64,000 bases of DNA from Octopus vulgaris (GCA_951406725.2 OX597821.1:57040001-57104000); one strand, 5' to 3'. Positions 5,813 to 62,800 are shown, counted from the stretch's first letter. Notes: generated from the sequence alone by a model not told the origin. A program made the numbers and translations.

Positions 5813-6218
5813 GATATTTAATTAACTATATATAATATGTAGTAGGTTGAAAAGGAACACACGAGTTGATATGTATAGAAAAAATAAGACCATGTAGAAA
5901 ATGCTAAAATAATTTTATCATGAAAAACATTTTAGTACCGGTTCCAGCCTTTGCAACTTTTTCAACTTAGAGTAAAGTGTGAAAAACAATTAAATTGTGG
6001 AAAAATTAAATGAAGTGCTTTTTTAAAATATTTCCATAGTTTTCAAATGCAAGGGACATTTTCCTTTTTTTCTGTCTGTCTGTCTCTCTTTTTTACTCCT
6101 GAGTTACACAAGCGTAAAAAAGAGAGACAGAGACAGACAGAAAAAAGGAAAATGACCCTTGCATTTGAAAACTATGGAAATATTTTAAAAAACCATTTCA
6201 TTTAATTTTTCCATAATA

Positions 6219-6640
6219 GGCGCAGGAGTGGCTGTATGGTAAGTAGCTTGCTAACCAACCACATGGTTCCGGGTTCAGTCCCACTGCGTGGCATCTTGGG
6301 CAAGTGTCTTCTGCTATAGCCCCGGGCCAACCAATGCCTTGTGAGTGGATTTGGTAGACAGAAACTGAAAGAAGCCTGTCGTATATATGTGTATATATAT
6401 ATATATGTATGTGTGTGTATGTTTGTGTGTCTGTGTTTGTCCCCCTAGCATTGCTTGATTACCGATGCTGGTGTGCTTACATCCCCGTCACTTTGCGGTT
6501 CGGCAAAAGAGACCAATAGAATAAGTACTGGGCTTACAAAAAATAAGTCCCGGGGTCGATTTTCTCGACTAAAGGCGGTGCTCCAGCATGGCCACAGTCA
6601 AATGACTGAAACAAGTAAAAGAGTAAAAGAGTAAAGAGTG
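6219..6640 (+). mobile_element. tRNA-derived SINE family 1, near full-length young copy
   Basis: GGCGCAGGAGTGGCTGTATGGTAAG..GGTTCAGTCCC head, internal (TA/TG)n and (GAGTAAAA)n tail. Confidence 0.95.
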
Positions 6641-6669
6641 AATTTAATTGTTTTTCATGCTTTACTATA

Positions 6670-6702
6670 AGTTGAAAAAGTCGCAAAGACTGAAACCAGT
6701 AC
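6670..6702 (+). ncRNA. Minimal hammerhead ribozyme motif, family D, U3-A8 core variant
   Basis: AG-TTGAAAA-agtc gcaaa gact-GAAA-ccag-TA-C; the partner arm gives palindromic stem III ACCGGT and stem I AG/CT. Confidence 0.65.
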
Positions 6703-6762
6703 ATTTAACATTTTCTACCTGGTGTTATTTTCCTTATGTATATATATATATATATATATATA

Positions 6763-7015
6763 GGTGGCACGTAAAAAGCACCCACTACACTCACGGAGTG
6801 GTTGGCGTTAGGAAGGGCATCCAGCTGTAGAAACACTGCCAGATAAGACTGGAGCCTGGTGCAGCCTTCTGGCTTTCCAGATCCCCGGTCGAACCGTCCA
6901 ACCCATGCTAGCATGGAGAACGGACGTTAAACGATGATGATGATGATGATGATGATATATACCCATGCTAGCATGGAACGCGGACATAAAATTATGATGA
7001 TGATGATGATGATGA
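6763..7015 (+). mobile_element. RTE-type tail with duplicated 3' end and (GAT)n
   Basis: Conserved tail sequence; ACCCATGCTAGCATGG..(GAT)n occurs at both 6901 and 6961. Confidence 0.85.
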
Positions 7016-7020
7016 TATAT

Positions 7021-7148
7021 AGGTTAGGAGAGGTAATGGTGTCATTGAGACCCAAAGGTGTCAGGTAATGCTGAATAAATGCTATAGATAGACCATAGTT
7101 AAGTTCCAAGTTCGGTGATTTGCGAATAAGGCGTTCAATGTTGATCAT
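7021..7148 (-). pseudogene. Possible Penelope-like GIY-YIG endonuclease C-terminal relic
   Basis: Minus ORF ends IAFIQHYLTPLGLND, resembling the WI..L.TL.P.GLN C-terminal motif of PLE GIY-YIG domains; adjacent to a hammerhead foldback. Confidence 0.45.
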
Positions 7149-7235
7149 ATGTCAGCGTGTGTATATACCAATTTTTTTTCGTAATGAGATAAAAAACGAA
7201 GGCTAAGTAGATTTTAGAACATTTATAGATAGAAG

Positions 7236-58832: not shown

Positions 58833-59429
58833 ATTCATCAGCATTAATATATGTAGGTGCAGGCGTGGCTGTCTGGTAAGAAACTTGCATTGCAGCCATG
58901 TTCACTACTGTGCCCCTGGACCTTCCAGTTCCTTATGAATGAATCTGGTGGATGAAAACTGTGTGGAAGCCCACAAGCGCATTATATATATATGGAAACT
59001 CTGCCAGATCAGATTGGAGCCTGGTGCAGCCATCTAGCTCGCCAGTCTTCAGTCAAACTGTCTAACCCATGCCAGCATGGAAAGCGGACGTTAAACAATG
59101 ATGATGTGTGTGTGTATGTATTTGTCCATCCACTTCTGCTTGACAGCCAGTGTTGGTTTGTTTACAGTCTCTGTAACTTGGTGGTTTGGCAAAGACGGTG
59201 CTAGGCTGCACCAGGATTCAATTGCCTGTTTTGGCATGGCTTTTATGGCTAGATGCCCTTCCTAACACTAAAGCACTTTACAGAGCATAATGGGTACATT
59301 TTACATGGCACCAGTACCTGTTTATTTGTTTATAAATGTAGATATATACCCAGGGTACAAGAGCTGTAAGTCCCGTGTGTGTGTGTATTTATAAAATGAA
59401 GGTTTATGTGTGTAAATGAATGTGTGTAT

Positions 59430-59817
59430 TCTTTTATTCTTTTACTTGTTTTAGTCATTTGACTGCGGTCATGCTGCAGCACTGCCTTTACTTAAGTAAA
59501 TCGGCCCTAGGACTTATTCTTTGTAAACCTAGTACTTATTCAATCGGTCTCTTATGAACCGTGAAGTTACGGGGATGTAAACACACCAACATCGGTTGTC
59601 AAGCGATGATGGGGGTACAAATACAAAAACACACACACACACATATATATATATATATACAATGGGCTTTCAGTTTCTGTCTGCCGAATCCACTCACAAG
59701 GCTTTGGTCAGCCTGAGGCTATAGTAGAAGACACTTGCCAAGGTGCCACGCAGTGAGACTGAACCCGGAACCATGTGGTTGGGAAGCAAGCTTCTTACCA
59801 CACAACCACTCCAGCGC
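59430..59817 (-). mobile_element. SINE family 1
   Basis: Full-length reverse copy. Confidence 0.9.
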
Positions 59818-60689
59818 TTTATATATATATATATATATATATATATATATATACACACACACACACACACACACACATACATGCACACACATGCACACAC
59901 ACATATGTACATACATATATACATCTATATATATATATATATGTGTGTGTGTGTAGAGAGAGAGATATGTAGACATATGTAGATGAATTTATATTACTAA
60001 CTGCAAGAGTGATTAAGAGTTAATTTTATTGTCAGTCTTGGTTGAAGTTATAATTCTTGACTTGTACAGTTAACTTAGTAATATATGTTACTGCTATTTA
60101 CTAAACGGCTTAGTGTCTTCCTGGACTCTTGTAGTATCAGAATCTGAAATTTCTTGTTAAATTTTTCGGGAATACTGACAATGAGCATTGAACAGAAGTT
60201 TAATGAATGGAGAGAAAAAACCCCCATCAACCTGAGTGACAGTTTTGACTGCATGAAAACATCTATTTAGTTAAGCAGTACATTACGGTAGGACATCTGC
60301 ACACCAGCAACATGTCGAGCTGTCATATGTAATTATTTGCGGCGCTGTATCGGTTAAGTTGCACAAGAACTGAAGACTATGAAATTGATTGAATGCAATT
60401 TTATTTTAAGTCTGTTGCAGTAAGTCTTATGAGGAGATTGTATCTAATCAACACCCATCAATACAAACAAGTTTCTAGACTTGCTAGAAATAGCAACCAT
60501 ATTGCTTTGAAATTACACCCTGCTGGTTTGACAAAGAGTGATGCACTGGATGATATGGTGTTAGATGTGATGTGATATGATGTGCAAAGCCTCAAATTAA
60601 GATGGAGTGGCCATGCTTGGAATGCTTTTGGTCAGGGGTCTGTTTTGATTTTAGTAGTTCTGTATAGTCATTCAATTATCAGACAAACT

Positions 60690-62120
60690 TATGTATACAT
60701 AAGTGTGTGTGTATGTACGTATACATGTGTGTATGTACGTATACATGTGTGTATGTACGTATACATGTGTGTATGTATGTATACATATGTGTGTATGTAT
60801 GTATATATATGTGTGTATGTATGTATACATATGTGTATGTATGTATGTATACATATGTGTATATATACATGTGTGTATATATGTATATATACATAGTTGT
60901 ATATATATGTATATATACATGTGTGTATATATGCATATATACGTGTGTATATACGCATATATATGTGTGTATATACGCATATATACGTGTGTATATACGC
61001 ATATATACGTGTGTATATACGCATATATACGTGTGTATATACGCATATATACATGTGTGTATATATGCATATATACATGTGTGTATATATGCATATATAC
61101 ATGTGTGTATATATAGTGTATATACAAGTGTGTATATATAGTGTATATATACACATGTGTGTATATATAGTGTATATATACATATGTGCGTATATATAGT
61201 GTATATATACATATGTGCGTATATATGTATATATACCTATGTGCGTATATATGTATATATACCTATGTGCGTATATATGTATATATACCTATGTGCGTAT
61301 ATATGTATATATACCTATGTGCGTATATATGTATATATACCTATGTGCGTATATATGTATATATACCTATGTGCGTATATATGTATATATACCTATGTGC
61401 GTATATATGTATATATACCTATGTGCGTATATATGTATATATACCTATGTGCGTATATATGTATATATACCTATGTGCGTATATATGTATATATACCTAT
61501 GTGCGTATATATGTATATATACCTATGTGCGTATATATGTATATATACCTATGTGCGTATATATGTATATATACCTATGTGCGTATATATGTATATATAC
61601 CTATGTGCGTATATATGTATATATACCTATGTGCGTATATATGTATATATACCTATGTGCGTATATATGTATATATACCTATGTGCGTATATATGTATAT
61701 ATACCTATGTGCGTATATATGAATATATACCTATGTGCGTATATATGAATATATACCTATGTGCGTATATATGAATATATACCTATGTGCGTATATATGA
61801 ATATATACCTATGTGCGTATATATGAATATATACCTATGTGCGTATATATGAATATATACCTATGTGCGTATATATGAATATATATGTATATGTGTGTGT
61901 ATATATGAATATATATGTATATGTGTGTGTATATATGAATATATATGTATATGTGTGTGTATATATGAATATATATGTATATGTGTGTATATATGAATAT
62001 ATATGTATATGTGTGTATATATGAATATATATGTATATGTGTGTATATATGAATATATATGTATATGTGTATTTTTATGTGTATATGTTTATATGTGTAT
62101 ATATACGTTTATATGTATGT
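60690..62120. repeat. Purine-pyrimidine minisatellite; homogeneous 26-bp unit ATATATACCTATGTGCGTATATATGT over about 61230-61880
   Basis: Seen directly; flanked by related 20-28 bp unit variants. Confidence 0.97.
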
Positions 62121-62121
62121 A

Positions 62122-62450
62122 TATGGCTCAGTGGTTAGAGCGTTGAGCTTACGATTGTGAGGTTGTGAGCTCGAATCCCAGACCAGGCTGCGTGTTGTGT
62201 TCTTGAGCAAGACACTTTATTTCACATTGCTCCAGTTCACTCAGCTGTAGAAATGAGTTGCGACGTCAAAGGTGCCAAGCTGTATCGACCTTTGTCTTTC
62301 CATTGGATAACACTGGTGGCGTGGAGAGGGGAGGCTGGTATGCATGGGCGACTGCTAGTCTTCCATAAACAACCTTGCCCAGACTTGTGCCTCAGAGGGT
62401 AACTTTCTAGGTGCAAGCCCATGGTCAGTGTCTGACCGAAGGGGGTCTCA
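62122..62450 (+). mobile_element. tRNA-derived SINE family 3
   Basis: TGGCTCAGTGGTTAGAGCG A box and GCTCGAATCCC B box; body as at 26728-27060. Confidence 0.9.
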
Positions 62451-62494
62451 GACTCATATATATATATATATGGGTGTGTATATGTATGTATATA

Positions 62495-62800
62495 ATTGTA
62501 TCTCGGGAGTGTTTAAAGCCTTATTACTTAACACACTCACTGGTTCGATTTCCACTCATTTATTTTTATTTGCTAGAATTTTTCTTGTTTCTTGGAACCT
62601 CTTCAGTAGTCATGAATAGAGTCAACGACTATTGAAGAGGTTGCAAGAAACAATGAAAATTTTAGAAAAGAAAAAAAAGAAGTAAATGAGTGGAAATCGG
62701 ACTGGTGAGTGTGTTAATTAATAAGGCACTAAAACAGAATGACTCTCCCCAGACACAAGAAAATATGCTTCAACACACAAACTCACATACAAAATTGATA
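62495..62800. mobile_element. Foldback family E
   Basis: Arms are reverse complements around 62612-62626; cores CTGAAGA (62600-62606, minus) and TTGAAGA (62632-62638, plus). Confidence 0.85.

Follow-up and report, generated by a model that had tools for sequence, protein, structure and literature searches.

Head-to-head ends of Penelope-like elements with predicted hammerhead motifs in Octopus vulgaris: two-ended priming as a probable route

What are the inverted repeats in a 64,000-nt stretch of the Octopus vulgaris genome (GCA_951406725.2 OX597821.1:57040001-57104000, hereafter the window), and how did their arms come to stand head to head? The window is repeat-rich animal DNA on contig C8 of a 2.8-Gb genome. 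A sequence-only reading had described seven unrelated repeat families with a minimal hammerhead ribozyme near the 3' end, usually integrated as dimers, and had proposed non-autonomous derivatives of Penelope-like elements (PLEs). Sequence comparison now indicates that the repeats are very probably for the most part 5'-truncated 3' ends of autonomous PLE families with the minimal hammerhead motif of this group. Each head-to-head pair is one insertion, and we consider it probable, with less confidence, that it was made through priming at both target ends and joining of two complementary DNAs (cDNAs). The kind is already known: minimal hammerheads, head-to-head copies and a one-sided tail are published PLE features. 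The locus is real and mostly ordinary; its addition is a mechanistic lead and a useful test case.

Self-BLAST of the window directly recovered eight of the nine proposed inverted repeats (5935-6702, 7162-7791, 10476-11242, 12646-14600, 29995-30229, 33306-33774, 43738-44188 and 62512-62733). The first is interrupted by a short interspersed element (SINE) at ~6216-6633. In the ninth (18170-19045), the left arm is just ~37 nt long (18172-18208) and lacks a hammerhead. The left arm is minus and the right arm plus in 9/9 repeats. They fall into the dimer families A (7162), B (18170, 33307, 43740), C (5870), D (10470, 29938, 62495) and E (12635). Two more families, F (19388) and G (19819), are represented by solo copies. 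In the last 330 nt of families A-G, mutual similarity was limited to one 17-nt and one 38-nt match. The nine repeats, their polarity and the division into five dissimilar dimer families and two solo families were thus as first described.

The origin of the repeats is visible in long copies. Those of families A, B, C, D and F extend 5', on the hammerhead strand, into GIY-YIG endonuclease or reverse transcriptase (RT) coding sequence, which makes the repeats 5'-truncated copies of autonomous elements. Coding sequence was reached in seven loci of family C (tblastn), in L201 and L202 of family D, which we take to be Nematis-like, and in L205 of family F. Pfam placed GIY-YIG below cut-off on the open reading frame (ORF) of L205 and found nothing on three short fragments. 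The parent of family B encodes a Poseidon-like endonuclease with a stop codon 9 nt before a tRNA-like segment. ORF end and segment were joined in 24/24 retrieved loci with the junction; 23 had body sequence behind, on the same strand. Family A has a 3' untranslated region (UTR) of more than 1 kb and then, in four loci (L334, L344-L346), an endonuclease with a CxCx5C linker and CxxC-E-N-CxH, the pattern of Hydra-clade PLEs (PMC8557442). The clade labels Poseidon, Neptune and Hydra come from comparing linker and endonuclease motifs with that study. In L344, a Neptune-type ORF related to F is immediately followed by the Hydra-type copy of family A, one PLE beside or inside another.

The coding link is firm for these five families. 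It is weak for E and lacking for G, and both count against the PLE reading. In family E, ~3 kb of AT-rich sequence leads to a 48-aa CxxC-E-N-CxH fragment in one of eight loci, 38% identical to the family A endonuclease over 34 aa (E = 2e-4). Family G had no coding sequence within 1.5 kb in 20 loci. The Penelope-like origin proposed from the sequence alone was therefore confirmed in A, B, C, D and F, and so was the suggested inward extension to RT and GIY-YIG sequence, with a single fragment in E and nothing in G. The label non-autonomous was not supported, as the copies continue into the coding sequence of autonomous families.

A search of the host genome for GIY-YIG gave 150 scored matches, many within 781-aa open frames. 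Pfam identified GIY-YIG and RVT_1 on one such frame. This intact family has direct pseudo-long terminal repeats (pLTRs) that are 99% identical (L207, L208). A U3-A8 minimal hammerhead lies downstream of the ORF in 14/21 loci of its cluster, and its tail corresponds to the 40 nt immediately downstream of the 5' pLTR. The family is young in L207 and L208 (contigs C16, C17), which also have an upstream open frame of 360-380 codons.

Copies of the families have a fixed 3' end, variable 5' truncation and an optional tail. Most 3' ends have (TA)n, which identifies microsatellite targets. An origin as DNA-transposon miniature inverted-repeat transposable elements (MITEs) or as foldback elements bounded by terminal inverted repeats would account for the long inverted arms and for nothing else. 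The dimers differ in arm length, in junction and in the length of the target duplication, most copies are solo, and the long copies that run into RT/GIY-YIG sequence refute this explanation, which is given next to no weight. The sequence-only reading had rightly set MITEs aside. The repeats should be annotated as PLE ends, not as MITEs, SINEs or microRNA hairpins.

Family motifs aligned to the window gave 20 hammerhead homologues, 12 with all core nucleotides by reading of the alignment. The cleavage site predicted from sequence lies 52-165 nt from the tail-less end. A strict descriptor had 4 matches, against 0.38 +/- 0.58 in 60 local dinucleotide shuffles (max 2), and a loose descriptor 8, against 2.1 +/- 1.5 in shuffles (max 7); the motif is more frequent than in shuffled controls, as the earlier reading implied. 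The matching descriptor allows one extra base after A9; a descriptor lacking this base had no matches in the window. Among 150 of 340 Rfam matches listed there was no hammerhead; nearly all of these resembled microRNAs, and every one stayed below the gathering score.

Per-family genome searches returned 1,700-3,185 candidates, of which 40 were scored and 20-30 loci retrieved per family. The majority sequences of families A-F fold cleanly as minimal type I hammerheads. Those of A (with U4C), B, C, D, E and F have the core C3/U3-U4-G5-A6-N7-G8/A8-A9, G12-A13-A14 and U16.1-H17 together with both stem I and stem II. Across families, position 3 changes together with position 8: C-G in A, B, E and G and U-A in C, D and F. 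Stem II sequences are unrelated between families, yet paired. Stem III is a perfect 4-8 nt palindrome in 7/7 family majorities, as had been claimed, and in the separate intact family, with six different sequences. U4C is present in 20/25 family A copies. Family G has U at position 6 in 27/28 copies; with A6U fixed, it fails this core, so the claim of a hammerhead in all seven families holds for six. A sister family of G, found in flanks, carries A6. Among the non-CpG core columns, variation in B, F and G is greatest at position 7, which is unconstrained in the core.

Covariation in the stems among genomic copies, to which the sequence-only reading had pointed, was absent within families. Apart from one family D copy, changes were one-sided or pair-breaking. 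This counts against the reading and is expected of neutrally decaying copies. Support for the hammerhead fold is between families, not within them. In genomic copies the putative hammerheads are passengers, with cleavage as a prediction. Three fragmented RNA-seq runs, a data type unable to decide cleavage, showed no read-end pile-up. At least four further minimal hammerhead families are present in flanks (L157, L183, L213, L228, L333, L340 and others), including the G sister with normal A6 and U4C.

Outside the window, 68 dimers (49 with two full ends, 19 short-armed) and 131 solos were counted. Duplicates and window loci are omitted and four edge cases were set aside. Dimers make up 31/54 events in family B and 37/145 (26%) in the other families; these are lower bounds because most loci span only 1.5 kb upstream and were chosen as best matches. 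In the flanks of unrelated loci, 6/18 events were dimeric. Such flanks and position-ordered pattern matches stand in place of a random genome sample, and dimer fractions are approximate. With 9/12 events, the window is on the dimer-rich side. The notion that these elements are usually dimers is accurate for the window and for family B and does not extend to the other families as counted.

Among 62 close pairs, including 6 from the window, 54 are divergent, 2 convergent (both G) and 6 tandem, in agreement with the polarity first noted. Among the first 100 exact family B matches, 14/14 close pairs are divergent. In dimers of families A-E, the tail is on one arm in 39/48, on both in 2 and on neither in 7 (p = 8e-6 against independence). 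Tails measure ~60-140 nt in A, D and E. Among the 42 family B loci whose two outer ends are opposed, 23 have target duplications of at least 8 nt, a length reached by 1.6% of mismatched flanks, and 15 have duplications of at least 10 nt, reached by 0.3%. The lengths of target duplications and arms and the positions of junctions all vary. The target duplications flank the whole dimer, so each dimer is a single insertion. This contradicts, for most loci, an origin by fold-back inversion at hairpins of solo copies already inserted. Moreover, the outer ends coincide with the ends of the element, and it is the tail that distinguishes the two arms. One locus fits such an inversion: the family B palindrome of L266 runs more than 60 nt into the flank on both sides. 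A post-insertion origin is rated very improbable.

How could one insertion produce two opposed 3' ends? The Poseidon PLE protein studied in vitro makes a nick in each strand of the target, extends both and starts at two RNA sites that bracket the tail (PMC11167929). The protein is a predicted dimer, and insertion in vitro is independent of hammerhead cleavage (PMC11167929). A single protein dimer may use both RNA start sites, one per target end. Both cDNAs would stop early and would then be joined through short homology or by end-joining. In family B, both would usually terminate at a 12-nt near-palindrome, by which they would anneal. Two joined cDNAs from different start sites should always stand head to head, have one tail and a target duplication, and show random loop orientation at a self-complementary stop. 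All four were observed. The two-ended priming route is, on this evidence, the better-than-even explanation of the dimers.

The loop orientation comes from family B, which has ~10,000 exact 22-nt matches in the host genome. A 12-nt near-palindrome (5-bp arms, 2-nt loop) lies between its stop codon and the tRNA-like segment. Exact patterns at this site were found in 351 loci folded back and 345 reading through. It is the strongest self-dimer of 1035 family B 12-mers, with -13.4 kcal/mol as a duplex and -2.1 as a hairpin. The second-best self-dimer site, predicted before the search, had 25 fold-backs against 9,983 read-through loci, with the parental loop in 24/25. A non-palindromic control site had 0 against 8,929. 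The fold-back rate at the 12-nt site is ~200-fold above that of the second hairpin. Several unrelated B dimers have a recurrent 16-nt deletion (e.g., window 33676) that removes the second hairpin from one arm.

Such junctions are also what self-priming would leave, the model proposed for Adineta PLEs and argued there from palindromic junctions (PMC3846280). One antisense strand, cDNA or antisense RNA, would fold at a short hairpin and extend itself, and later deletions and loop inversion would blur the pattern. Snap-back fits the junctions on template-encoded hairpins with the parental loop kept (351 and 25 loci), and the predicted junction sequence is identical under both models. It also fits the variants common to the arms of a dimer: in 14 dimers, derived variants common to both arms occupy 0.8% of sites, against 0.2% between dimers (3.5 times; 0/2000 permutations), with an overall arm divergence of 8.0% within and 8.9% between dimers.

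The tails speak against its simple form. From the first 50 listed fold-back loci, 40 were retrieved, all 29 with an oriented loop and 11/20 with an AT centre. The tail was visible in 19 of the 29, on the arm that snap-back would make first in 9 and on the other in 10. The expectation of a tail always on the first-made arm failed. Simple snap-back is unable to place the tail only on the second-copied arm; it would need either another template with a tail or a subsequent flip. In the dimers, the end without a tail coincides with that of tail-less solos, the published second RT start site (PMC11167929), and the hairpin is weak compared with the intermolecular duplex. One-tailed dimers, variable target duplications and random loop polarity (9:10) together favour two-end priming over simple snap-back, which is considered unlikely. 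The idea that mismatch repair gave rise to the AT and GC loop centres was abandoned, as read-through copies often have AT centres too, in keeping with CpG decay.

Several observations weigh against two-ended priming or weaken its support. Outside the hot spot, junction microhomology is slight, with at least 2 nt in 15/59 junctions against 15% simulated (p = 0.025) and at least 3 nt in 7/59 (p = 0.21), and 30/59 junctions have at least 3 unassigned bases. The tail is on the shorter arm in 21 dimers and on the longer in 11 (p = 0.11); arm length is weak evidence, as post-insertion damage is common. In 35/40 centre-selected loci, the match of at least one arm to the tRNA-like segment breaks off no more than 40 nt from the centre, and the arm sometimes runs into flank. 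This points to decay after insertion, and we infer that in many perfect palindromes one arm is partly lost afterwards. In vitro, both strands are alike in start site (PMC11167929), so the coordination between strands that would leave one tail is our inference. Loop polarity could likewise become random if the 2-nt loop inverted early, and later deletions with loop inversion could rescue snap-back. The variants common to both arms could stem from arm-to-arm conversion.

Why is the 12-nt site so preferred? A Pol III (RNA polymerase III) start at the family B segment would explain the ~200-fold difference, and a strong RT stop would do so equally. In the first case, family B would also be a SINE: A and B boxes would drive short Pol III transcripts from the hairpin, hammerhead included, mobilised in trans, and the hot spot would follow. 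Non-autonomous would then be true for part of family B only. The segment has an A box and a B box at tRNA spacing (0/3000 shuffles) and shares 76% identity, across 58 nt, with the head of a different SINE family (L022). Parental sequence is lost within ~15 nt upstream of the segment in 31/40 position-ordered B copies, and the fold-back rate at the hot spot is in line with such a start. A run of four T is absent from the segment to the tail, though the coding part is likewise without one.

On the other side, ARAGORN found no tRNA in the window and scored the B segment only at the relaxed threshold of 70, and Rfam on one family B locus called neither a tRNA nor a hammerhead. RNA reads cover the segment about equally on both strands, with no pile-up of starts or ends (three runs of one study, ~6% of each). 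Of the 40 B copies taken in order of position in which the start of the segment is intact, two small local duplications among them, 24 have an inverted arm directly upstream, 9 run into the ORF and 7 do neither; plain solos that start at the segment are thus few. A strong RT stop would look the same. A SINE role of family B is possible and on balance doubtful. An earlier view of family B as a free-standing tRNA-headed SINE was dropped once its parent ORF was found. The boldest combination is the more speculative still: a coordinated two-ended reaction by a PLE protein dimer and a tRNA-type promoter captured by family B, which would shed short hammerhead-bearing Pol III RNAs whose cDNAs pair through the 12-mer, a SINE arising inside a Penelope element.

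Several published systems are similar. Metazoan PLE minimal hammerheads occur in opposite-strand pairs 100-700 bp apart and have low in vitro activity (Cervera and De la Pena 2014, PMC4209133). The octopus motifs agree with these in the dual arrangement and its spacing, the short stem I, the extra nucleotide after A9, the palindromic stem III, the U3-A8 variant and the many families per genome. They differ from the descriptions given there by U4C fixed in A and A6U fixed in G. Further differences are the 12-bp stem II with a 53-nt loop in E and an additional nucleotide on each side at the bottom of stem II in A and F; the supplements might hold any of these variants. Head-to-head copies of endonuclease-bearing (EN+) PLEs have been described as inverted pLTR insertions (Arkhipova et al. 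2013, PMC3846280; Craig et al. 2021, PMC8557442). As here, these have an inverted 5'-truncated copy, a junction palindrome, a tail at one end, variable target duplications and microsatellite targets. The count of ~200 insertions in seven families, the single-site junction hot spot and the tail lengths in A, D and E set the octopus copies apart, and the present data lean against the published self-priming model.

The Anolis Poseidon element PAc (Frangieh et al. 2024, PMC11167929) has a hammerhead near its end and two ends separated by a tail, which corresponds, like that of the intact octopus family, to sequence downstream of the 5' pLTR. The parts of that study covered do not tie two-strand priming to inverted dimers. 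Non-LTR retrozymes are likewise type I hammerhead repeats related to PLE pLTRs (PMC7229834; bioRxiv 10.64898/2026.07.22.740005). Unlike these non-coding head-to-tail arrays, the octopus pairs are tandem in 6/62 cases and the copies lead into coding sequence. A repeat annotation of the octopus reports abundant PLEs; hammerheads and palindromes are not discussed in the parts covered (PMC13282606).

Two-ended priming is also known from another type of retroelement. In L1 twin priming, two primers from both target ends are extended and the cDNAs are joined by short homology, with an internal, non-overlapping part inverted. Here, unlike in L1, both arms contain the 3' end. A literature search by title and abstract found no two-cDNA or twin-priming model of PLE inversions and no tRNA-derived segments in PLEs; supplements, Repbase and subscription papers lie outside its scope and may hold these families.

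The origin of inverted ends and one-sided tails in PLEs has been described as an open question (PMC8557442). One tail per dimer, random loop polarity and a hot spot predictable from self-complementarity give a specific expectation for the in vitro PLE system already available. The sequence-only reading did not contain the target duplications, the one-sided tail or, in family B, the tRNA-like segment and the hot spot of junctions. Family B is also a sizeable source of genomic palindromes and of potential double-stranded RNA.

Within the window, the family A dimer (Hydra-type PLE 3' ends, 7021-7793; the family's coding link is in 4 loci) has a minus left arm at 7021-7490 with a tail of ~140 nt and a plus right arm at 7484-7793 without a tail. 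The hammerhead at 7236-7283 (-), with U4C and an 8-nt palindromic stem III, matches the family majority exactly, and that at 7668-7715 (+) is the same. A solo family A copy at 1060-1385 (+) has a G5A hammerhead at 1264-1311. The copies at 1060-1385 and 7465-7900 have their 3' flank in common, which points to a local duplication, not two insertions. The family C dimer (Neptune-type, 5850-6742) has a tailed left arm and a right arm split by the SINE; its hammerheads are at 5934-5967 (-, A13G) and 6670-6706 (+).

Family D has three dimers. That at 10476-11266 has hammerheads at 10569-10605 (-) and 11113-11149 (+, A13G) and a partial tail on the right arm. At 29947-30229, the junction is inside the hammerhead core (~30118) and the left arm is tailed. 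The third (62512-62785) has a decayed hammerhead at 62573-62609 (-) and another at 62629-62665 (+). The family E dimer (12626-14600), from a long AT-rich 3' UTR, has hammerheads at 12796-12899 (-) and 14345-14448 (+), with the long stem II and loop described above. By eye and compared with other tails, its left-arm tail is probably at 11570-11645 (-), shifted by ~1 kb of other sequence.

The first family B dimer (18172-19045) has, on its right arm, a tRNA-like segment (18217-18283), an insert X (18318-18800), a broken hammerhead (18911-18953) and a tail. The second (33308-33780) has its junction near the hairpin at ~33550, tRNA-like segments at 33506-33549 (-) and 33556-33633 (+), and hammerheads at 33348-33393 (-) and 33688-33733 (+, G12A). 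The third (43738-44212) is centred on the 12-nt near-palindrome at ~43975 and has hammerheads at 43792-43837 (-) and 44089-44134 (+) and a tailed right arm. Insert X, a non-coding element of 480 nt, lies within the (AAT)n tract in several copies of family B (also L015, L019, L021, L209 and L218), in both orientations and once tandem. It is probably a separate repeat that targets AAT tracts. The solo copies are a Neptune-type 3' end of family F at 19300-19760 (-), with a U3-A8 hammerhead at 19388-19424, and a family G copy at 19815-19945 (+), with a hammerhead-like motif at 19819-19854 and the family-wide A6U.

Other repeats accompany the PLE ends. Tandem 225-bp units at 32372-32825 and 52541-53075, with terminal inverted repeats joined at TTAA, resemble a MITE array. 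A perfect 44-bp palindrome at 37540-37583 is outside families A-G. A further repeat family ending at (TA)n is present at 11267-11560 and 15918-16209; it is tandem in L329 and possibly another PLE end. By eye, 62870-63200 is a reverse-transcriptase-like remnant of a long interspersed element (LINE).

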